Positions 23,179-31,681 of a stretch of 64,000 nucleotides of DNA are shown piece after piece. The number at the start of each line of letters is the position of its first letter. Within the stretch, counting starts at the first letter, position 1. The notes beneath the pieces were generated by a model, which made no database searches, was not told the origin of the DNA, and saw only the letters and a list, made by a program, of their open reading frames with translations. Source of the stretch: Candidatus Cryptobacteroides sp. (GTDB lineage: Bacteria; Bacteroidota; Bacteroidia; Bacteroidales; UBA932); the NCBI GenBank assembly GCA_045599265.1, contig JAZRVQ010000048.1:14627-78626 (forward strand), in the 5' to 3' direction. Both the position numbers and the translations under genes were made by a program.

Positions 23179-23253
23179 GTATGCAAAGATAGAAATTATT
23201 GGCATATGTCATAAAAAATGCTTTCTTTTGCAACAGATAACAGCAGAAGAGAT

Positions 23254-24108
23254 ATGACCGACCAGATGTTCACAATCCACGGGGAACCGCAGATAGTTGC
23301 AGACAGCAGAAAGAAGATCCTTGACGAATTCGCAGACCTCGAATTCTATGAGGACGGGCACATCTACATCCTCAACGGCAACAGGCTCAATTCCGTTTCA
23401 GGCATCGGGCACCGCTTTATCAGCAGACCGTTCGATGAGAACAGACAGGCGGAGAATTATGCCCGCAAGAACGGCAGGGACGCAGCCTACTGGCTGCTCC
23501 AGTGGCACCGCAACTCCTTCAGGGCCACCACCCTGGGCACAAAGACCCACGAGTTCGGAGAGAGTCTAGGCTACCTCAGGAGCGGTCATCCGGAGAAGAT
23601 CACTGAAAGGATACGTCCTCAATACAGTCAGGAATACGGATTTCTGGCCCCTATCCACCCGAAAGAAGAAGCCGTCGTGAACTTCTTCAACAACATGCCT
23701 GACTCGTACCATCTTGTCCTCAACGAGACCAAGGTCTACAGCGGCAAGAACCCGGACCCGGCCCTCAACCTGAAAGAGCAGATCTGCGGCACATTCGACA
23801 TGCTGTACTATTATGACGGCGAAGGAGACGAGTCCAAGGCCGGCTTCATCATCCTTGACTACAAGACCAACGGCAACCTGTACAACGACTTCAACAGAAA
23901 AAAGGACATCAAGCTCCTGCCGCCGTTCAACGACATCTTCGAAGAAAGCCTCGGTGAGTACACCATCCAGCTGAGCCTCTACGCCCTCATGCTCCAGGAC
24001 ATCGGCATCAACGTCATCGACCGCCGCCTCGTATGGCTCAAAGACGACGCCAGCTACGAGATCATCCCGCTGCAGGATGTCTCAGACAGACTCAGGAAGG
24101 TATTATAA
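23254..24108 (+). CDS. PD-(D/E)XK nuclease superfamily protein (RecB/Cas4/lambda-Exo-like fold)
   Basis: Ordered motifs GTKTHE ... ICGTFDMLYY ... IILDYKTNG ... QLSLYALML fit the D / (D/E)xK / QxxxY nuclease core. The start is set at ATG 23254 because 23218-23253 looks like promoter sequence. Confidence 0.55.
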   Translation: MTDQMFTIHGEPQIVADSRKKILDEFADLEFYEDGHIYILNGNRLNSVSGIGHRFISRPFDENRQAENYARKNGRDAAYWLLQWHRNSFRATTLGTKTHEFGESLGYLRSGHPEKITERIRPQYSQEYGFLAPIHPKEEAVVNFFNNMPDSYHLVLNETKVYSGKNPDPALNLKEQICGTFDMLYYYDGEGDESKAGFIILDYKTNGNLYNDFNRKKDIKLLPPFNDIFEESLGEYTIQLSLYALMLQDIGINVIDRRLVWLKDDASYEIIPLQDVSDRLRKVL

Positions 24109-24131
24109 ATCAAAGAATTGCCATCTTTCTA

Positions 24132-24220
24132 GCCTGGATTGGCCGTCTCACTCTAAATTCGTGTCGGCTGCTCCGCATGGTAATGTGGCCACTCAATGTC
24201 GTTCAACGACCAATCCAGGC
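24132..24220. repeat. Imperfect palindromic intergenic element with 11-bp arms and a 67-nt spacer
   Basis: GCCTGGATTGG (24132-24142) pairs with CCAATCCAGGC (24210-24220). The spacer contains the core ATTGGCCGTCTCACTC, which is also seen near 39697-39720 and 62478-62492. Confidence 0.6.
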
Positions 24221-24232
24221 CAAAGGAGCATT

Positions 24233-24565
24233 CTATTTCCTTACAGCTTTGGCGAACTGACCGAAATACTTGTCAAGGAAAGCAAGGTTGACTGTATCTT
24301 TTTTGAAATATGAAGACGTGAACAGGTCTCTTGCCCTAAGCAACTCGTTCAGAAGACACGCCCTGGAAGCCTGACCGGCCCTGCCATACTTAACTGTAGC
24401 ATCAATAAGGTCAAGAGCGCGTAAATATGCACCTTCAGCCATAGCCGGTTTGTCCCTCGCAACCCACTTGTATGTACGACCAATCTCGGAGCCGATATTT
24501 GCCATCTGCTCCATCAAAGGCATTTTGCTCCACCTTTGCTCGTCGATATGGGCAGGCAGATTCAT
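24233..24565 (-). CDS. Hypothetical, predicted all-alpha small protein
   Basis: 110 aa. ATGA overlap with the upstream DUF5674-like gene. I cannot confidently name a family. Confidence 0.5.
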   Translation of the reverse strand: MNLPAHIDEQRWSKMPLMEQMANIGSEIGRTYKWVARDKPAMAEGAYLRALDLIDATVKYGRAGQASRACLLNELLRARDLFTSSYFKKDTVNLAFLDKYFGQFAKAVRK

Positions 24566-24903
24566 TGCTTTACATAACTGGAAACAATGCTGAAAATAGA
24601 CTCCCTTATTGAGCAGTCTTCAACATCACGGCTAAAATTATTCTGACGAGGCCTGATATTGATCAGAGAATCAAACTCAATCATATCTTCCCCATCCACC
24701 TCCGGATAAATGTTGAACCCCCAAAGGTCCTCCTGAGCAGAACCATCACCCAGCAGCATCGCTTCCAAATCAGAATGCAATTCTGCATCAATGGCAAGTT
24801 TGCCGGATTTTACATCTGCGACAGCCTTGATCATGTCACCATAAACAGATGCTGCGATTGTCATCAATTCTTCTCTGGAGAGGGGTTCACTCAGGATAAT
24901 CAT
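24562..24903 (-). CDS. DUF5674-like small protein
   Basis: MIKAVADVKSGKLAIDAELHSDLEAMLLGDGSAQEDLWGFNIYPE...FDSLINIRPRQNNFSRDVED matches my memory of the DUF5674 consensus. Start at ATG 24903; the track start at 24930 is a TTG inside the tRNA terminator. Confidence 0.55.
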   Translation of the reverse strand: MIILSEPLSREELMTIAASVYGDMIKAVADVKSGKLAIDAELHSDLEAMLLGDGSAQEDLWGFNIYPEVDGEDMIEFDSLINIRPRQNNFSRDVEDCSIRESIFSIVSSYVKQ

Positions 24904-24908
24904 AAGGT

Positions 24909-24946
24909 CAAAATAAAGAAAAAGGCTCAAGATTCAAACTTGAGCC
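24909..24946 (-). terminator. Rho-independent terminator following the tRNA
   Basis: On the minus strand, GGCTCAAG-TTTGAAT-CTTGAGCC is followed by TTTTTCTTTATTTT. Confidence 0.65.
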
Positions 24947-24953
24947 TGTCTAG

Positions 24954-25026
<73 letters not shown>

Positions 25027-25068: not shown

Positions 25069-25527
25069 TTATTTTTCATCAGTGGCCGTCAAAGTCACCT
25101 CAACGTCTTCTGCACCGTATATGCCCATATTCCAGGCATCGTCCCCATCACCGAGCCTGGAAAGCTGCACAGTCTTGGTGCGGGACTCGTACGAGCCGTT
25201 ATCAGAGCCATCTATATCCCTGACATTCAAGACAAGAGTATCCTTCAATTCACCTCCGTAACTGGCATTGATGGCAAATTCCCCTTCCGAGCCGGTCCTT
25301 ACCGACATCCAGTAACGGGACACAGAGATGCCCTTGACCGGCCTGCCATCGGAATCGCACACACGCCCCTTGACAGAGCAGGCATAATATGGAGTGCCGT
25401 ACATATCCGGCTGCGGACAGCCATACATCTTGGCACAGTCAGTCGCACCGACACCGATGCCGAAAAGCGACAGCACCCAGCCGCAGAAACGAATCCAGTT
25501 GGAATGTAAGTATTGCTTCATAATCAA
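25069..25527 (-). CDS. Putative lipoprotein, paralog of the radical-SAM-associated lipoprotein at 28924..29406
   Basis: 152 aa. Shares WIRFCGWVLS, MYGCP, VKGRVCDSDGRPVKGISVS and the C-terminal DTL..D.DG..NG.YES...V.L...GDG.W..G...A.DVEV.L block with the other copy. Confidence 0.7.
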   Translation of the reverse strand: MIMKQYLHSNWIRFCGWVLSLFGIGVGATDCAKMYGCPQPDMYGTPYYACSVKGRVCDSDGRPVKGISVSRYWMSVRTGSEGEFAINASYGGELKDTLVLNVRDIDGSDNGSYESRTKTVQLSRLGDGDDAWNMGIYGAEDVEVTLTATDEK

Positions 25528-25562
25528 TTTAAATGAGTTTTAAATATAACTTAGCCGGAAGT

Positions 25563-26234
25563 CTATAACTTGAAAGTTTTGAAGAACACTCGAGCTGTGG
25601 CTACAAGATAAGAAGCGTATTTTGTTTCTTCAAAGTAATTTTCGTCTGGCAAAGGGAACGAACCAGTCAATTTTTCTTTGATTGAATTCTCGAGTTCTTT
25701 TATCTTTCTCGGAGGAATAGCATATGTGGCTTTGTCGCCTTTAGGGTGCCGGATACGTATTTCCATTTCAAGCACTCTCTTTGTTTGTGGGTCGATACCG
25801 AGGTATAGTCCTATGGATGTGTCAGTTCCTTTTGAGTTTTGTTGGAAAATAGTATTGGCCCCTTGCACTTCAGAATCAGGGAACACTTCCTTTACGATTG
25901 ACAACAAAATAGATAGGTCCACATCCATATGAGGCTGCTCATAATGAAGAGATTCGCCTGTTCTCGTATCATATTGGCCACGAGTGATAATATGATTTCC
26001 ATAGTTTTTCAAATAAAAACCGTCAATGACACTGTTAAAAAAACCAACAGAATAAGTAGTATCACCTGAACGCACTGCCAATTGCCCCGAATAATAGTCG
26101 GAACAATTCATCTTGAGATCGGAATCTTCAACTGGAATCTCAGGGCATGCGGAAAATTTGCTGAAGTCTTTCTGTGCCATAAGAGGGCACGAGCTCAAAA
26201 TCATGGCTATGAAAAGTGTCTTAATGTATTTCAT
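25563..26234 (-). CDS. Hypothetical secreted or lipoprotein
   Basis: 223 aa, AT-rich. Signal peptide MKYIKTLFIAMILSSCPLMAQ. I recognise no family. Confidence 0.5.
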   Translation of the reverse strand: MKYIKTLFIAMILSSCPLMAQKDFSKFSACPEIPVEDSDLKMNCSDYYSGQLAVRSGDTTYSVGFFNSVIDGFYLKNYGNHIITRGQYDTRTGESLHYEQPHMDVDLSILLSIVKEVFPDSEVQGANTIFQQNSKGTDTSIGLYLGIDPQTKRVLEMEIRIRHPKGDKATYAIPPRKIKELENSIKEKLTGSFPLPDENYFEETKYASYLVATARVFFKTFKL

Positions 26235-26284
26235 ACAACTGCAAATTTAGAATCTACGTGAAACAAATAAACATAAGGACTCTT

Positions 26285-27811
26285 TTAATCTATTTCATTA
26301 TTGGCTGTAGTGAAGCCTTTCAGGTGTTTGAGAGGATCAAAAGATGCGTCATATTTATATGTCATACCATGGTATAGTGTACTATTATTTTTATCCAATT
26401 TTTTAACTGCAGCAACGGCAGCATTAAATGTGGTTTCATTTTGGTCCTTATAGAACGCAATCAAGGCATCTACAATATCGCTGTCAAACGGCTGTTCACT
26501 ATTCATGCCTTCTAATAGAAGAATGTCATAGATTTTCGCTTCGAATTCATAGTTGCCTAACGGCCAACCAGGGTCTTCCGCACGCTGCATTGAGTGGAAC
26601 ATCTCTTCCATAAGATATTTATAATCCAGCACTTTATCATGAGGAATTTTGATTTCCGTGCTTGTAGAAACGGGGTTTCCTGAGCCTATGACGGTAATGG
26701 TTTTCAGTTTTGAAGCCCTGCGGAACACGTCAGTTATCATTTTGTTTTCTGGTTTTTTTAGTAGTAGGCTGTCAATCGTACATTTTAGTCTGTCGACACT
26801 GGCTTGAAATGCATTTGCCCCAAGTTGCACATAACTTGAAAAACGATTTGCCAGCTCTTCCACAGTTTCCTCCTCTTTACCGTCATCGGAAGAGTCGTAA
26901 ATAGATGCGCCGCCGAAATGGTTGTCGGAGTCACTAGGATCGGCGTCATTGCAATTCTCGTTATTTTTCCGAAGGCAATAAAGCAACTACCAAAGTGATT
27001 CATCAACGCCTGCACCACCGCCGCCATAATCCCGTTCTGCTGAAACGACAGATTCATCTCCCAAAGGGAAATGATATGTTCCATCGGGGTTAAGGGTCTC
27101 ACCGAAATATAGACTCTGAACTTCATCAACAGCCATTTGGAATGCCTTGGTCTCCTCTTGAACGATAACTTTCTGCAATGTAACGCCACCTAGCATGGAA
27201 ATAAGCTTTGCATAAGCAGCTGCAACCTCATCATCGGTCTTCTGGTCATGCAGATACAGACCGCCTAGGCATTGCCCGTCACAATACTCGTTTATTCTGA
27301 CGGTTGCTCCGTCAAGCGTGTTGTAGAATTTGAATCCTGTGAAGTCGCCCATGTCTCCACTATTGTCGAACATGGATGCCAAGTCTCCATCGCAACTGTT
27401 CAGGTAATCAAGTGCAGGAAGATAATACACCATGTATATGGACTCGGCTCCGGTCTGGTCATTTTTCAGGTACATCAGCTCACGGTCGCACCATACAATG
27501 TTGCCGTCCGGCATGATGACTCGGAACTCGTAGGTGGATTCTAGTTTTGATTCGATGCCTTCAAAACCGTTGGCCTTGTTCTCAAAATACTCGAAAGAAG
27601 TCCACTCAACTTCAGATTAGCCTGGTGTGAACAAAAACACAACATCATCGCAATCGGACTTTGTCAAAGCGGGACGGCAGGCCGAGAACAGTTTCTTAGC
27701 GTCATCCACCATCTGCTCGCTCACATCAGGGAAAGGGGCCACCGCCTCCTTGTTGCAAGAGCATACCACTAGCAGCAAGATTGAAAGCAAGGTAAGTTTT
27801 CTCATAACCAA
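26285..27811 (-). pseudogene. Lipoprotein gene of ~506 codons interrupted by two in-frame stops (TAA at 27617-27619, TAG at 26987-26989)
   Basis: The track ORFs 27617..27811, 26987..27514 and 26285..26986 are all in one frame. The 34 codons between the TAA and the next ATG are open (SEVEWTSFEYFENKANGFEGIESKLESTYEFRVI). The third ORF's TTG directly follows the TAG. The N-terminus has a lipobox (LLLVVCSC). Confidence 0.5.
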
Positions 27812-27856
27812 AACAGTTCGTTTTTAGATTGTCATTTTTTAAGAAGGACTTAATGT

Positions 27857-28924
27857 TTACTTAAGCCTGTCCATGTGGCAAAGAATCAGCTTGCCGTCGT
27901 CGCCGCGCAGGTGCATTCCGTTGCCCATGCAGTAGCGGAACCACTTGCAGTCACCGCACTGGTCCCTGCGCATCCATTCACGGTCACGGTAAGGCTGGAA
28001 CCGGTTCTCCCACACATCCACGAAATCATCCTTGTAGATGTTTCCCTGATGGTAGTCGGAGCGGATGCTGGAGCAGGCGGAGATGGACCCGTCAATCAGC
28101 ACAGACCCGACGGTGAGGCCCGCCTGGCACGAATACAGCGTGTCCCTGACAACGCCCTCATACTCACCCAGAAAGCCCTCGCAGGCATAATTGGCGTTGA
28201 TCCTCCCCTCTTTGCGGGTTTCCCTGATGAACTCCATCAAGCCGCGGAACTCTTCGGCGGAAAGCTGAAGTTCAGGATCATTGGCGGCACGGCCCACAGG
28301 AAATACAGTGAAAAGGCGCCACTGCTTCAGACCGAGCGAGATCAGATATTCCTTCAGTTCACGAAGTTGCGGATAGTTGCGCCTGTTCACGCAGGTCACC
28401 ACATCGAATCTGATTGACGGCTCGGCAGCGAGGATTCCGATGGCCTGTGAGGCGTATTTGAACCCGTCGGCGCTGCCGCGCATCCAGTTGTGGTTCTCCT
28501 CCAGACCGTCAAGGCTGATTGTGGCCGAATGAAGACCCGCTCCGAGCAGCTGGTCAATCTTTTTGGGAGTCATCAGGCGTCCGTTGGACACCATGCCCCA
28601 CGGGAACTCCATATCATATATGCGGCGTCCGCAACTGACGATGTCATCGCGCATCAGAGGCTCCCCTCCCGTCACGACAATCATGATCTTGTGGCTGTCG
28701 TAATGTTCCCTGACATTGATGAGCACCTTCTCGAAATCCTCGAACGGCATGTCCGGATGGAGGGCAGACACCTTGCAGTCACTGCCGCAATGACGGCAAT
28801 TCATATTGCAGCGCAGAGTACACTCCCAGAACAATTGCAGCAAAGGATGAGTACGAACCTCATCCTTCACCAACTGTCTGTTCAATTCGAGCGCGATGCG
28901 CTGTTTCAATGAAAGCGCCCCCAT
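27857..28924 (-). CDS. Radical SAM/SPASM domain protein
   Basis: 355 aa. CNMNCRHC is the CX3CX2C cluster motif. GGEPL is present. The C-terminal Cys-rich CQAG...ACSS...CGDCKWFRYCMGNG...C is a SPASM-type auxiliary cluster region. Confidence 0.9.
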   Translation of the reverse strand: MGALSLKQRIALELNRQLVKDEVRTHPLLQLFWECTLRCNMNCRHCGSDCKVSALHPDMPFEDFEKVLINVREHYDSHKIMIVVTGGEPLMRDDIVSCGRRIYDMEFPWGMVSNGRLMTPKKIDQLLGAGLHSATISLDGLEENHNWMRGSADGFKYASQAIGILAAEPSIRFDVVTCVNRRNYPQLRELKEYLISLGLKQWRLFTVFPVGRAANDPELQLSAEEFRGLMEFIRETRKEGRINANYACEGFLGEYEGVVRDTLYSCQAGLTVGSVLIDGSISACSSIRSDYHQGNIYKDDFVDVWENRFQPYRDREWMRRDQCGDCKWFRYCMGNGMHLRGDDGKLILCHMDRLK

Positions 28925-29406
28925 TATTCTGCCTTCTTCTTCTCTTCCAGGACGACTTCCACATCCTTGGCCTCGAATGTGCCGTCATACCATCTTCCGT
29001 CACCTTTTTTGGTCTGCGTCAGAGTGACAGGGACCTCCTTGGACTCATATTCGCCGTTCGCGGCACCATCCACATCAATGAAATGGATATGAAGGGTATC
29101 CTGAGGGAATTCTGAATCGACAAGTTCGAATGCACCTTCAGAATCGGTATATACCTTATTGACCAAGGAATATCCCTCAACGTCCGGATAGTCATAATGC
29201 GACACTGCAATGCCCTGTATAGGCTTGCCGTCAGCATCGGTAACCTTGCCTGTAACGCGGTAATCCATTGATGGACACCCATATTCACAGGCTATTGGAA
29301 GCAAATGACAGGAAGTGACTCCGGCAAAGCCGAGTGCGGAAAGAAGCCATCCGCAGAATCTGGACCAGGTAAATCTGATTTTATCAGCCATAATCAAAAA
29401 AATCAA
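28924..29406 (-). CDS. Radical-SAM-associated putative lipoprotein
   Basis: 160 aa (alternative start at M6, 29391). Contains WSRFCGWLLSALGFAGVTSC, EYGCP and VTGKVTDADGKPIQGIAVS. Its TAA shares a base with the ATG of the rSAM gene (TAATG). Confidence 0.75.
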   Translation of the reverse strand: MIFLIMADKIRFTWSRFCGWLLSALGFAGVTSCHLLPIACEYGCPSMDYRVTGKVTDADGKPIQGIAVSHYDYPDVEGYSLVNKVYTDSEGAFELVDSEFPQDTLHIHFIDVDGAANGEYESKEVPVTLTQTKKGDGRWYDGTFEAKDVEVVLEEKKKAE

Positions 29407-29429: not shown

Positions 29430-30821
29430 TCACTGAACGTTGCACAGATATTCGTCAATCGCAGCGGCGGCCTTGCGTCCGGCACCCATTGCCAGAATGA
29501 CGGTTGCGGCGCCGGTCACTGCATCACCGCCGGCAAACACGCCCTTGCGGGTAGTCGTGCCCTGCTCGTCAGCCACCAGACAGCCGCGACGGTTGGTTTC
29601 CAGACCGCCTGTCGTGCGGGCAATAAGCGGGTTAGGAGATGTTCCGAGCGACATTATTACGGTGTCGGTCTCGATCTCGAATTCGGAGCCCGGCACAGGC
29701 ACGGGACTGCGGCGCCCGCTCTCATCGGACTCGCCAAGTTCCATGCGGATGCATTTGACAGCGCGGACCCAGCCCTTCTCGTCGGCAAGTATCTCGACAG
29801 GATTGGTGAGCATCGCGAATTTGACGCCCTCCTCATGGGCATGATGGACCTCCTCGGCACGTGCCGGCAGTTCCTTTTCGGTGCGGCGATACACAATCGT
29901 GGTGTCGGCACCGAGCCTGAGCGCCGTCCTGGCTGCATCCATCGCCACATTTCCGCCACCGACGACAACAGCCTTGCGGCCGGCATGTATAGGAGTAAGG
30001 TAATCCTCGCGGAAAGCCTTCATCAGATTGTTGCGGGTAAGGAATTCATTGGCAGAGAACACGCCGTTGCAGTTTTCGCCGGGAATGCCCATAAATTTAG
30101 GAAGACCGGCTCCGGAGCCGATGAAAACGGCCTCGAAACCTTCCTCATCCATCAGCGAGTCAATGGTCACGGTGCGGCCCACAACAACGTCAGTCTCTAT
30201 CTTTACACCGATTGCAGCGACATCCCCAATCTCTGCGGCGACCACCTTGTCCTTAGGGAGACGGAACTCCGGAATACCGTACTGAAGCACACCGCCTGCC
30301 TTGTGGAGAGCCTCGAAAATGGTGACGTCATAACCTTTCTTCGCCAGGTCGTATGCACATGCGAGACCGGCAGGGCCGGACCCTACCACGGCGACCTTGT
30401 GACCGTTCGGAGCGGTGGGACAAGGTGCGGCTGAGAGCTTGTTTTCACGGGCATAATCGGCCACGAAACGCTCCAGCTTGCCGATTGCGACCGGTTCGCC
30501 CTTGACTCCAAGGATACAGCTGCCCTCGCACTGGGTTTCCTGAGGACACACGCGTCCGCAGATGGCCGGCAGGGACGAATCTTCCGCTATCTTCGCCGCT
30601 GCTCCGGAAAAATCTCCGGCAGCCACCCTGGCTATGAACTCCGGTATCTTGACACTGACAGGGCATGCACCCATGCAGCGTGGATTCTTGCAATTGAGGC
30701 AGCGGGAGGCCTCCAGCCTGGCTTCTTCGACATTATAGCCATAACACACCTCTTCGAAATTGGTCGCCCTGACCTTTGGATCCTGTTCACGGACAGGCAC
30801 TCTCGGGATTCTGTTTGCCAT
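29430..30821 (-). CDS. NADPH-dependent glutamate synthase small-chain-like oxidoreductase (NfnB/SudA-type)
   Basis: 463 aa. N-terminal 2x[4Fe-4S]-type Cys motifs (CLNCKNPRCMGACP, CGRVCPQETQCEGSC) and two dinucleotide folds (VVGSGPAGLA, VVGGGNVAMD). Confidence 0.85.
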   Translation of the reverse strand: MANRIPRVPVREQDPKVRATNFEEVCYGYNVEEARLEASRCLNCKNPRCMGACPVSVKIPEFIARVAAGDFSGAAAKIAEDSSLPAICGRVCPQETQCEGSCILGVKGEPVAIGKLERFVADYARENKLSAAPCPTAPNGHKVAVVGSGPAGLACAYDLAKKGYDVTIFEALHKAGGVLQYGIPEFRLPKDKVVAAEIGDVAAIGVKIETDVVVGRTVTIDSLMDEEGFEAVFIGSGAGLPKFMGIPGENCNGVFSANEFLTRNNLMKAFREDYLTPIHAGRKAVVVGGGNVAMDAARTALRLGADTTIVYRRTEKELPARAEEVHHAHEEGVKFAMLTNPVEILADEKGWVRAVKCIRMELGESDESGRRSPVPVPGSEFEIETDTVIMSLGTSPNPLIARTTGGLETNRRGCLVADEQGTTTRKGVFAGGDAVTGAATVILAMGAGRKAAAAIDEYLCNVQ

Positions 30822-31681
30822 TATTTTCCCCTCCCTATTCTACATACGTGATGTTCATTTGCAGCGGCCTCTTCAGGCTTGTACATAGCCTGACGGCGCA
30901 TCGCCTCATCGAAATCCACAAGGGCTCCGTCAAATTCGGGTCCCTCCACGCAGGCGAAGCGTGTCTTGCCGCCCACAGTGACCCTGCAGGCTCCGCACAT
31001 TCCAGTGCCGTCCACCATCAGGGTATTGAGACTGACGATGATTGGAAGGCCGAGCTTCATTGCGGTCAAGGTGGAGAACTTCATCATGATCATAGGGCCG
31101 ATGGCGACAACCTGAGTGAATTGCTCTCCCTCGGCGACGAGTTTTTCGAGCATTGCCGTGCCGACTCCGTGGAATCCGGCCGAACCGTCATCCGTGCAGA
31201 TGTACAGGTTGTCGGCGACACTGCCAAGTTCCTCCGTGTAGATAAGAAGGTCCTTGTTGCGGGCCCCGACGATGACATCGACCTTGACGCCGTGCTCGTG
31301 CAGCCACTTCACCTGCGGATAGACAGGGGCTGTACCCACTCCTCCGGCAATGAAGACATAATGCTGTGCGGCAAGGGCTTCCGGGCTCATCCCGACAAAA
31401 TCTGACGGCACTCCGAGAGGTCCCACCACATCGGCGAATGCCTCACCGGGCTCGTATGAACAGATGTCTCTTGTCGATGCACCGATCATCTGGGTGACAA
31501 TGGTCACGGTACCCTTCGCGGCGTCGAAATCGCTGATTGTAAGCGGGATGCGCTCCCCCTTCTCGTCAGCCCTCACAATAAGGAACTGGCCGGGACGTGC
31601 AGCCCTGGCCAGACGGGGTGCCTCCACCTTCATCTTGCAGATGTTCGGTGTCAGCATTTCTTTTTCTACAATACGGAACAT
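30821..31681 (-). CDS. Sulfide/dihydroorotate dehydrogenase-like FAD/NAD-binding protein (NfnA/SudB-type)
   Basis: 286 aa. Ferredoxin-reductase-like fold (RIPLTISD, FIAGGVGTAP) plus a C-terminal [2Fe-2S] Cys motif (GTGMCGACRV...FACVEGP). TAATG overlap with the downstream partner gene. Confidence 0.85.
   Translation of the reverse strand: MFRIVEKEMLTPNICKMKVEAPRLARAARPGQFLIVRADEKGERIPLTISDFDAAKGTVTIVTQMIGASTRDICSYEPGEAFADVVGPLGVPSDFVGMSPEALAAQHYVFIAGGVGTAPVYPQVKWLHEHGVKVDVIVGARNKDLLIYTEELGSVADNLYICTDDGSAGFHGVGTAMLEKLVAEGEQFTQVVAIGPMIMMKFSTLTAMKLGLPIIVSLNTLMVDGTGMCGACRVTVGGKTRFACVEGPEFDGALVDFDEAMRRQAMYKPEEAAANEHHVCRIGRGK

Follow-up and report, generated by a model that had tools for sequence, protein, structure and literature searches.

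The window, a 64,000-nucleotide stretch of the genome of a Candidatus Cryptobacteroides sp., carries on its minus strand a radical SAM enzyme gene, two lipoprotein genes (lipo1 and lipo2) and a low-GC block, with the following features:

25069..25521, minus strand: lipo2, second TIGR04134 paralog, 150 aa (NCBIfam, BLASTP)
25390..25428, minus strand: tandem double motif of lipo2, M32-Y-G-C-P-Q-P-D-M-Y-G-T-P44 (MYGCPQPDMYGTP; read from the sequence)
25563..27811, minus strand: low-GC ORFan block with four ORFs of 64, 175, 233 and 223 aa
27857..28924, minus strand: radical SAM/SPASM enzyme gene, TIGR04133, 355 aa (NCBIfam and Pfam profile matches)
28922..28926, minus strand: TAATG junction, in which the lipo1 stop and the enzyme start share one base (read from the sequence)
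28924..29391, minus strand: lipo1, TIGR04134 pre-lipoprotein, 155 aa (NCBIfam, AF2)
29272..29286, minus strand: E-Y-G-C-P motif of lipo1, codons 36-40, with Tyr37-Gly38 as the proposed modification site (read from the sequence)
29308..29310, minus strand: predicted lipobox Cys28 codon of lipo1 (VTS/C; sequence and lipobox alignment)

The initial annotation had described the enzyme as a CNMNCRHC radical SAM protein with a C-terminal SPASM-type Cys region and had pointed to a TIGRFAMs "rSAM/lipoprotein system" of this shape. Indeed, the enzyme matched Pfam Radical_SAM (4e-14) and SPASM (2.8e-6) and scored 558.4 bits against TIGR04133 (curated cutoff 425), and lipo1 and lipo2 scored 111.2 and 63.6 bits, respectively, against TIGR04134 (curated cutoff 39.8). 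Both families are NCBIfam hypothetical equivalogs; the JGI name of the enzyme is "radical SAM enzyme (rSAM/lipoprotein system)" and TIGR04134 is named "radical SAM-associated putative lipoproteins". No paper on the family was found in the searchable literature, where the only match was a typo for TIGR04131. With gene order, coupling and taxon (Bacteroidales) also typical, the locus is, by these sequence criteria, a typical copy of a known, widespread and uncharacterised gut-Bacteroidales gene pair, differing in nothing essential but having a second, non-adjacent lipoprotein behind a strain-specific low-GC block.

The CX3CX2C motif of the enzyme is formed by C39/C43/C46 within CNMNCRHC. Three extra Cys (C35, C50 and C178) are invariant in the columns across 23 family members, and the SPASM region contains C248, C266, C284, C323, C326, C332 and C349. 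No RRE domain was detected at the N-terminus, which has only a single helix (residues 6-21). The solved folds closest to the AF2 model (pLDDT 79, pTM 0.82) are SkfB, SuiB, BlsE and anSME (TM ~0.65), among which SkfB, SuiB and anSME are peptide- or protein-modifying SPASM/twitch enzymes. Among characterised NCBIfam families, the top scores were those of heme b synthase AhbD (120.7 bits) and NirJ2 (119.6 bits), far below their cutoffs of 500. The best-scoring peptide-modifying families were the Tyr-directed MftC (96.9 bits) and, level with it, TIGR04103 (96.6 bits, cutoff 725), of which we take PlpX to be a member. Since AhbD and NirJ2 outscore TIGR04103, the enzyme cannot be assigned to the spliceases by sequence. 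The best match among PDB sequences was BlsE, a small-molecule enzyme, and anSME matched only at E values of 4e-5 to 1e-9. Judged by these scores, the enzyme lies outside any characterised clade, including that of anSME.

Lipo1 and lipo2 share 38% identity over 156 columns (BLASTP, E 1e-30), in line with their earlier description as paralogs. Their likely starts are ATG codons rather than TTG; lipo1 read from ATG (MADKIRF...) agrees with the N-terminus of an 88% identical homolog, P0001. Lipo1 consists of a signal peptide (residues 1-27), the lipobox Cys28, a disordered tether, E36-Y37-G38-C39-P40 and a beta-sandwich (residues 42-148) of a generic CarboxypepD_reg/prealbumin-like fold; its AF2 model (pLDDT 79) has a helix at residues 2-22, low confidence at residues 24-33 and the sandwich from residue 42. 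Lipo2, located 2.3 kb downstream of the enzyme stop, has an atypical lipobox (ATD/C29), and tandem double motifs like its own also occur at three other loci (L010, L023 and L027). The W-x-RFCGW stretch pointed out in the initial annotation is present in both copies, but it lies inside the signal peptide and was seen only in lipo1, lipo2 and P0001, not family-wide, making its Cys a lineage-specific signal-peptide residue.

Pairing of enzyme and lipoprotein in Bacteroidales

We compared 80 species-level Bacteroidales loci with a TIGR04133 enzyme, scoring the lipoprotein partner by HMM or motif. The lipoprotein adjoins the enzyme in 73 of them and is its sole conserved neighbour; near the pair, these 80 loci share no further gene for biosynthesis or transport. 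Two of the seven exceptional loci are truncated by a contig end. In L015, L022, L033 and L041 no adjacent lipoprotein was seen, and orphan lipoprotein copies also occur, both of which count against the lipoprotein being the substrate of the enzyme. The TAATG overlap, from which co-translation had been proposed, has counterparts throughout the family: the stop/start gap is -14 to +9 nt in 48 of the 52 upstream-type loci, most commonly -4 (ATGA) or -1. Enzymes remain 73-79% identical between genomes whose lipoproteins share only 33-43% identity, with the motif still kept.

The presence of one enzyme with two substrate-like copies was first regarded as unusual. This arrangement proved to be common, with two lipoprotein genes in ~11 of the 80 loci, repeated motifs in 21 of 78 proteins, orphan copies, and one related cluster with two radical SAM genes and six small-protein genes (five of the products with lipobox-like N-termini, four with an x-Y-G motif and four with a beta-sandwich). 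Only the low-GC ORFan block separating lipo2 is peculiar to the genome of the window. Its GC content is 0.37-0.47 compared with ~0.52-0.57 in the flanks, consistent with the AT-rich 2.3-kb block reported earlier, and its 175-aa and 233-aa ORFs are a single frame split by one TAG. The ORFs of the block had no match in Pfam, NCBIfam, PHROGs or PADLOC and no homolog among 5.8 billion proteins, its DNA had no phage or plasmid match, and it is missing from 80/80 related loci. The block is probably a strain-specific insertion outside the enzyme/lipoprotein system.

The Y-G-x-P motif of the lipoproteins

When the pattern Y[GA]x(1-2)P was sought no further than 80 aa from the lipobox, the motif was recovered in 79 of 134 lipobox-like ORFs adjacent to the enzyme versus 4 of 258 non-adjacent ones (Fisher p = 8e-41), and it is present in 123/123 small family representatives. 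Across 101 motif instances, Tyr is found in 101 and Gly in 97, while all other positions vary. An aromatic residue stands at +7 in 87/101 and Pro at +3 in 85/101, but some short lipoproteins have M, E or H at +7, and Pro shifts register in YGPRP variants. Two to four copies are present in 21 of the 78 proteins; multi-domain members carry the motif before each domain, with extra copies in linkers that no domain follows. Prevotella lipoproteins of 88-104 aa retain it (RKVVYGPRPT) without any beta-sandwich. This repetition and survival without the sandwich fit a core-peptide module. In TIGR04134 proper, however, the motif directly abuts the N-edge of every beta-sandwich, so it could be partly structural.

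A proposed maturation pathway and its alternatives

With the lipoprotein as the sole conserved gene beside the enzyme and the motif enriched in adjacent ORFs, we infer that the lipoprotein is the substrate. We propose, with a probability of roughly 0.55, a two-component maturation system in which Sec/SPII lipidation would follow modification of the pre-lipoprotein by the enzyme at Tyr-Gly. The enzyme would act in the cytoplasm on the still-unfolded pre-lipoprotein, translated from the shared mRNA just before the enzyme, and would target [M/E/V/L]-Y-G-x-P-x-x-[D/E]-[Y/F], located ahead of every beta-sandwich domain in the tether that follows the lipobox Cys. SAM would be cleaved reductively, and the resulting 5'-deoxyadenosyl radical would attack the invariant Tyr-Gly. 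After Sec export, the modified precursor would be diacylglyceryl-modified and cleaved at the lipobox Cys (Lgt/LspA), leading to membrane anchoring.

As the specific chemistry, we consider most likely a splicease-type reaction in which a tyramine equivalent would be excised at X-Y-G (-135.06 Da); taken on its own, this is the weakest step and tentative. If the reaction is of this type, the ketoamide product would be an electrophile and a known inhibitor of Ser/Cys proteases. The spliceotide work of Scott et al. in 2022 reportedly counts 939 predicted systems in 189 genera. Spliceases are radical SAM/SPASM enzymes whose site is X-Y-G, in native substrates MYG or LYG; for PlpA2, the minimal splice tag, PIRPLYGLPI, is itself a Y-G-x-P sequence, and binary splicease systems do not need an RRE protein (PMC11414181, PMC10533398, PMC11626197). 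The pair in the window resembles the spliceotide pathways (PlpX/PcpX/RhaX; Morinaka 2018, Scott 2022) in its enzyme with radical SAM and SPASM domains and in an invariant substrate Tyr-Gly that follows M, L, V or E. Recognition motifs of ~10-11 residues, several sites per precursor, an RRE-free binary arrangement and the ability of spliceases to act on whole proteins are further parallels. In contrast, the TIGR04103 score of the enzyme is no better than those against unrelated SPASM families, and its substrates would be Sec/SPII lipoproteins with a folded domain rather than Nif11/NHLP-type precursors.

The order of cytoplasmic maturation followed by the SPII lipoprotein pathway has a precedent in DAG-RiPPs, MNIO-modified RiPP-lipoprotein hybrids such as DybA/DybH (PMC13056109, PNAS 2026). 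These likewise combine a precursor bearing an SPII lipoprotein signal peptide and invariant lipobox Cys with a cytoplasmic maturase lacking a signal peptide and a short conserved core motif, are found in Bacteroidota and range from peptides to proteins. They differ from the pair in the window in their core motif (CPACGMG versus YGxP) and in their O2-dependent multinuclear iron maturase, in place of which a radical SAM/SPASM enzyme suits strict anaerobes. The mining of genomes in that paper was restricted to MNIOs, and radical SAM is not mentioned in its text (PMC13056109).

The same enzyme may instead perform another Tyr/Gly-directed radical reaction on the same substrate, such as a crosslink (C-C or C-O) between Tyr and the +7 aromatic residue or Pro, epimerisation, or beta-hydroxylation/dehydrogenation, giving a rigidified or protease-resistant tether without a ketoamide. 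This is possible, though not the reading that we favour. SuiB and SkfB, the SPASM enzymes nearest in fold, form crosslinks, Tyr-directed MftC matches TIGR04103 in score, and the conserved +7 aromatic residue and +3 Pro could reflect a chemistry other than the splicease type. However, strict conservation is limited to Tyr and Gly, and since +7 varies and Pro changes register, there is no fixed second crosslink partner. Triceptide cyclophane motifs have the form aromatic-X-X, and an invariant Gly followed by a variable third residue is the reverse of this three-residue pattern.

It is improbable that the lipoprotein is not a substrate at all and that the enzyme produces or alters a tetrapyrrole of the AhbD/NirJ type or some other small-molecule cofactor, with the lipoprotein binding, carrying or sensing the product outside the cytoplasm and YGxP capping the beta-sandwich structurally at its N-terminus. 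The leading AhbD, NirJ2 and BlsE matches and the position of the motif immediately before every sandwich domain are consistent with this, but the profile scores are far under cutoff and no further biosynthetic or transport gene accompanies the pair. Moreover, short lipoproteins in which the motif is accompanied only by a lipobox and a coiled coil stay associated with the enzyme, motif copies occur in linkers without a following domain, and a stop/start overlap between a cytoplasmic enzyme and an exported protein is typical of maturase-precursor pairs.

Modification of the Cys of (E/M)YGCP, as proposed in the initial annotation, by a thioether (sacti- or ranthipeptide-like) or anSME-like formylglycine is very unlikely: this Cys is present in both copies in the window and in 38 of the 123 closest family representatives, many SPASM enzymes are Cys-directed, and anSME and SkfB rank among the nearest folds, but of the 79 first motifs in enzyme-adjacent lipoproteins only 3 have Cys at the x position (V, P, T, Q, G, A, S or M in the others), no further non-lipobox Cys is conserved in the family lipoproteins, and the C/S-x-P/A-x-R sulfatase motif is absent. 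The anSME and the thioether-forming SPASM/twitch maturases (SkfB, CteB and QhpD) share with the enzyme its overall fold, a similar SPASM Cys pattern and the modification of a protein or peptide before export, but their sequence similarity to it is weak and lipoproteins of the type in the window lack a conserved target Cys/Ser and C-x-P-x-R. The stretch after the lipobox singled out earlier nevertheless stands as the best candidate site, with Tyr-Gly, rather than Cys, as its conserved element.

The enzyme and its lipoprotein partners

The gene taken in the initial annotation to encode a radical SAM enzyme does so: its 355-aa product contains CX3CX2C at C39/C43/C46 (within CNMNCRHC) and a C-terminal Cys-rich region, and Pfam detected both Radical_SAM and SPASM in it (SPASM, 28.0 bits against a GA of 21.5). 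The enzyme matched TIGR04133 (rSAM_w_lipo) among the NCBIfam HMMs with 558.4 bits (E = 5e-168; curated cutoff, 425) over profile positions 1-349 of 350. Two small ORFs on the same strand exceeded the cutoff of TIGR04134 (lipo_with_rSAM), so that the TIGRFAMs 'rSAM/lipoprotein system' was correctly recognized. The three genes are as follows.

27857..28924, minus strand: radical SAM/SPASM enzyme, 355 aa
28924..29391, minus strand: lipo1, directly upstream of the enzyme gene, 155 aa; TIGR04134, 111.2 bits (cutoff 39.8)
25069..25521, minus strand: lipo2, downstream of the enzyme gene, 150 aa; TIGR04134, 63.6 bits (cutoff 39.8)

Close homologs of the enzyme are named 'TIGR04133 family radical SAM/SPASM protein' or 'radical SAM enzyme (rSAM/lipoprotein system)' in public sources, and the best 120 database matches listed were all enzymes with 66-97% identity, some of them bearing the TIGR04133 name. 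An exact-match look-up of the enzyme in public assemblies returned no hit. The locus is thus a member of a database-defined family already known as an enzyme-lipoprotein pair. The family definition is more than ten years old, and a literature search for TIGR04133 and TIGR04134 yielded no assigned chemistry, its sole match being a misprinted identifier of the T9SS type-B CTD.

BLASTP confirmed that lipo1 and lipo2 are paralogs (38% identity, E = 1e-30). The true starts of both ORFs are more likely ATG codons lying a few codons inside the TTG codons originally listed; both ATG codons share the context TTGATTATG, and P0001, a homolog 88% identical to lipo1, begins at the equivalent Met. By inspection, the N-terminus of lipo1 consists of K/R, a hydrophobic helix and a putative lipobox, VTS↓C. 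The putative lipobox of lipo2 is ATD↓C with an atypical Asp at -1, and its standing as a functional lipoprotein is therefore uncertain. The W-x-RFCGW string reported for the two proteins is present in both, but it lies in the signal peptide and was otherwise found only in P0001. Pfam gave nothing beyond sub-threshold CarboxypepD_reg similarity for either protein. In the AF2 model of lipo1, residues 2-22 form the signal-peptide helix, residues 24-33 fall below pLDDT 50, the motif-bearing block averages 57, and a beta-sandwich begins at residue 42, immediately after YGCP. Structure matches of this sandwich were generic prealbumin/CarboxypepD_reg-like folds only (teneurin, intradiol dioxygenase core and SusC NTE; TM 0.4-0.47), and the predicted fold gives no clue to function.

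We examined 80 Bacteroidales loci with relatives of the enzyme (53-79% identity; one genome per species scanned). A lipoprotein was located beside the enzyme in 55 of them by an HMM of lipo1 homologs and in 73 after a motif-based search was added. Among the seven exceptions, the enzyme lies at the end of a contig in two, and one, L032, has an SPI-type protein bearing the same motif. In the reverse check, a Radical_SAM/SPASM gene was found near lipoproteins P0010 and P0019, and P0023 was an orphan copy. The one-base overlap read initially between the TAA of lipo1 and the ATG of the enzyme gene (TAATG, 28922-28926) is correct. Moreover, stop-to-start distances are -14 to +9 nt in 48 of 52 lipoprotein-upstream loci, with ATGA (-4) and TAATG/TGATG (-1) as the commonest junctions, indicating that the stop/start coupling in the window is a family trait. 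The pair is widespread among Bacteroidales of the gut and rumen, and the lipoprotein profile matched 3,513 clusters (50% identity) at E <= 1e-10, a count that includes unrelated multi-repeat proteins. In loci L001-L021, the enzymes are mostly 70-79% identical to that of the window (65-66% in L019 and L020) and the adjacent lipoproteins only 32-43%, the L001 lipoprotein being missing from the BLAST list. Judged by these identities, the lipoprotein, which is the presumed substrate, diverges far more quickly than its enzyme, in keeping with exposure at the cell envelope.

No other neighbour of the pair was conserved among the 80 loci. Directly upstream of lipo1 (38 nt apart) and in the same orientation, 29430-31681 (minus strand) holds an NfnAB/SudAB-type pair of genes overlapping by one base, which encode a sulfide/dihydroorotate dehydrogenase-like FAD/NAD protein (388 bits, cutoff 220) and a GltA-type NADPH-dependent glutamate synthase (586 bits, cutoff 472). 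These genes were rejected as conserved partners because their synteny is shared only with L015, which has no lipoprotein.

The Tyr-Gly motif of the lipoproteins

The lipoproteins carry x-Y-G-x-P after the lipobox (E36-Y37-G38-C39-P40 in lipo1), and the Cys of this (E/M)YGCP sequence had been suspected as the modified residue. Its conservation speaks against that choice: among 79 enzyme-adjacent lipoproteins, Cys follows Tyr-Gly in three, the other residues at this position being V (23), P (15), T (12), Q (8), G (7), A (5), S (3), M (2) and I (1). What is invariant is Tyr-Gly. In the 101 copies of the motif carried by 78 unique proteins, Tyr is present in all 101 and Gly in 97, with Ala in the remaining four; Pro occupies +3 in 85, +6 is most often acidic or Asn (64 instances) and +7 is usually aromatic, while the residue before Tyr is M in 35, V in 30, E in 26 and L in 6. 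A second, independent set, of 123 small representatives of the family (50% identity clusters), gave Y-G/A-x(1-2)-P in 123 of 123, x being Cys in 38. Of the lipobox-like ORFs adjacent to the enzyme, 79 of 134 contain the motif, versus 4 of the 258 located elsewhere in those loci (p = 8e-41); the motif is thus specific to the neighbours of the enzyme.

In Prevotella-type loci, the lipoproteins adjoining the enzyme are 88-104 aa long and lack the sandwich, having a predicted coiled coil between the lipobox and a C-terminal RKVVYGPRPT. Two to four motif copies are present in 21 of the 78 proteins, some of them in linkers or in tandem, as in lipo2 (MYGCPQPDMYGTP), and multi-domain family members have one motif ahead of each domain. 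Because the motif is carried by sandwich-less proteins, is repeated, and recurs once per domain, it is probably a functional module in its own right and not merely a part of the sandwich. A separate feature was seen in the lipoproteins of L055-L080 (e.g. L058, 7196-7999), which also carry two YGVP motifs: their mature N-terminus reads C-(N/H)-C-H-K, placing His/Cys/His after the putatively lipidated Cys in an arrangement that resembles a small metal-binding site.

Candidate substrate, modification site and chemistry

From the sequence comparisons, we put the probability that the lipoprotein is the substrate of the enzyme and the YG motif its site at roughly 0.55-0.6. In place of a Cys that is not conserved, the candidate site is now the invariant Tyr-Gly, which corresponds to the site used by radical SAM spliceases. 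The enzyme, having no signal peptide and needing reduced Fe-S clusters and SAM, would have to act in the cytoplasm before export, presumably on the unfolded pre-lipoprotein, after which the modified precursor would be exported by Sec and lipidated on its lipobox Cys.

The AF2 model of the enzyme (pLDDT 79, pTM 0.82) comprises a partial TIM barrel and the SPASM region; it contains no RRE domain, only a single N-terminal helix preceding the radical SAM motif that starts at residue 39. Among solved structures it is closest in fold to BlsE and to three peptide/protein maturases, SkfB, SuiB and anSME (TM ~0.65). BlsE was also the best PDB sequence match (E = 2e-13 with the single sequence and 4e-15 with a profile), followed by SkfB and anSME, and no splicease structure was among the PDB entries matched in the sequence and profile searches. 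Across 23 TIGR04133-family members, the invariant Cys residues are C39/C43/C46, seven in the SPASM region, and C35, C50 and C178. The last three lie outside the canonical CX3CX2C/SPASM positions, and C35 and C50 are symmetric around the radical SAM motif (C-x3-C-x3-C-x2-C-x3-C).

Since only Tyr-Gly is invariant in the lipoproteins, reactions requiring another fixed residue as partner are disfavoured. Among known radical SAM/SPASM reactions, the one whose site is precisely of this kind is tyramine excision, and on this analogy we tentatively regard a splicease-like excision as the likeliest specific reaction of the enzyme; it would imply a change of -135.06 Da at X-Y-G. The proposal remains a doubtful one, because the score of the enzyme against TIGR04103, which we take to be the same family as IPR026482 and therefore to contain PlpX, is weak (96.6 bits, cutoff 725), ranking under AhbD, NirJ2 and TIGR04053. 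PlpX is assigned to IPR026482 (PMC11002830). Spliceases excise tyramine at native MYG and LYG sites, and the minimal splice tag of PlpA2, PIRPLYGLPI, reads Y-G-x-P; the recognition sequence spans ~10-11 residues, whole proteins can be spliced, binary systems without an RRE protein exist, and spliced products inhibit Ser/Cys proteases (PMC11414181, PMC5995677, PMC10533398, PMC11626197). The lipoproteins described here share with spliceotide systems the conserved X-Y-G, with M, V, E or L at -1, whereas the TIGR04103 score does not place the enzyme in the splicease family.

Other chemistries were also considered. The enzyme falls outside every characterised clade, as the initial annotation had supposed. 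The top characterised NCBIfam families, AhbD (heme b; 120.7 bits) and NirJ2 (NirJ, heme d1; 119.6 bits), score above TIGR04103 but far under their cutoff of 500, and tetrapyrrole genes were found neither in the neighbourhood of the enzyme in the window nor as conserved genes across the 80 loci. Identity with anSME was rejected: the PDB match reaches only E = 4e-5 with the single sequence and 1e-9 with a profile, anSME is outside the top 25 NCBIfam matches, and its substrate motif C/S-x-P/A-x-R is absent from the lipoproteins. A sacti- or ranthipeptide maturase was rejected, as the lipoproteins have no conserved Cys other than that of the lipobox and the enzyme has no RRE domain. Finally, a viperin or defence role can be dismissed, the PADLOC pVip matches (71.6 and 63.7 bits) reflecting the common radical SAM core only and the NCBIfam prokaryotic viperin model scoring 68 bits against a cutoff of 180.

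Modification in the cytoplasm followed by export and lipidation has been demonstrated for MNIO-modified DAG-RiPPs of Bacteroidota, in a study whose genome mining was confined to MNIO enzymes and whose text has no mention of radical SAM (PMC13056109). The putative SPII signal peptide of the precursor and the cytoplasmic maturase architecture, as read from sequence and model, would fit this scheme; in contrast, the maturase is an MNIO (DUF692) in all described examples and a Radical_SAM plus SPASM protein here. The new element of the present analysis is that it joins the Tyr-Gly site to the lipoprotein-RiPP logic published in 2026, and no paper on both spliceases and lipoproteins was found in the literature searched. 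Scott et al. 2022 reportedly screened all radical SAM-SPASM neighbourhoods of UniProt reference proteomes for YG motifs and predicted 939 systems in 189 genera. Because all such neighbourhoods were screened for YG, the YG/splicease link for the TIGR04133/TIGR04134 family may already be among those predictions.

A speculative extension, on balance improbable, is that TIGR04133 enzymes are tyramine spliceases that work without an RRE in strictly anaerobic Bacteroidales of gut and rumen and introduce alpha-keto-beta-amino-acid (ketoamide) groups into lipid-anchored tethers. The products would be the first radical-SAM-made 'DAG-protein' hybrids, acting as membrane-anchored covalent inhibitors or traps of Ser/Cys proteases on the cell envelope or outer-membrane vesicles, with protease specificity depending on which residue (E, M, V or L) precedes Tyr and the fast-diverging beta-sandwich displaying the reactive group. 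If the splicease proposal were correct, ribosomal beta-amino-acid chemistry would reach lipid-anchored proteins in anaerobes that dominate the human and animal gut, and an oxygen-independent branch would be added to the newly described lipoprotein-RiPP hybrids.

Multiple lipoproteins and the setting of lipo2

One enzyme with two substrate-like copies had been considered unusual, but about 11 of the 80 loci have two lipoprotein genes, and several putative substrates per enzyme are normal in the TIGR04133/TIGR04134 family. The 2.3-kb block between the enzyme gene and lipo2, rightly noted as AT-rich, is the feature that sets this genome apart. The features of this region are as follows.

25563..27811: low-GC block, GC 0.37-0.47 (~0.52-0.57 around)
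26285-27514, minus strand: 175-aa and 233-aa ORFs forming one frame split by a single TAG (26987-26989)
24953-25026, minus strand: tRNA-Met(CAT), 42 nt downstream of lipo2
24923-24947: terminator-like hairpin
23218-24930: lower-GC genes past the tRNA, namely DUF5674, an ORF of 110 aa and a phage-type exonuclease (phrog_298), the last encoded on the opposite strand

The four ORFs of the block had no family match and no homologs (NCBIfam, Pfam, PADLOC etc.), and the block showed no match to phage and plasmid DNA and no convincing flanking repeats. The joined 408-aa product of the split frame had no homolog among 5.8 billion proteins, and the frame is either a recently formed pseudogene, a true pair of ORFans or a case of read-through. 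Genes between and beyond the enzyme and lipo2 had no counterpart in any of the 80 loci, the DUF5674, 110-aa and phrog_298 genes included, and the tRNA-Met neighbourhood may be a tRNA-associated integration remnant. The GC content of lipo2 itself is host-like, and lipo2 is most closely related, with similar scores, to lipo1 and to the L010 lipoprotein of the downstream type. The simplest reading of these sequences is an ancestral lipo1-enzyme-lipo2 order that was split by a strain-specific insertion.

Two further arrangements were noticed among the related loci. In L070 (7347-9068), the lipoprotein and the enzyme form one uninterrupted frame of 574 codons with the junction in an A-run; a natural fusion was rejected, as the 97%-identical relative P0024 (379 aa) is unfused and no fused protein was among the best 120 matches listed, and the frame probably reflects a 1-nt assembly error. 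L083 (3900-8450) and L084 contain six small-protein genes together with two distinct radical SAM genes, one encoding 345 aa and the other a TIGR04133-like protein of 358 aa. Five of the six small proteins have lipobox-like N-termini (less clear in the 137-aa one), three carry xYGxP and one DFYGIF, and four have a beta-sandwich, one of these without the motif.
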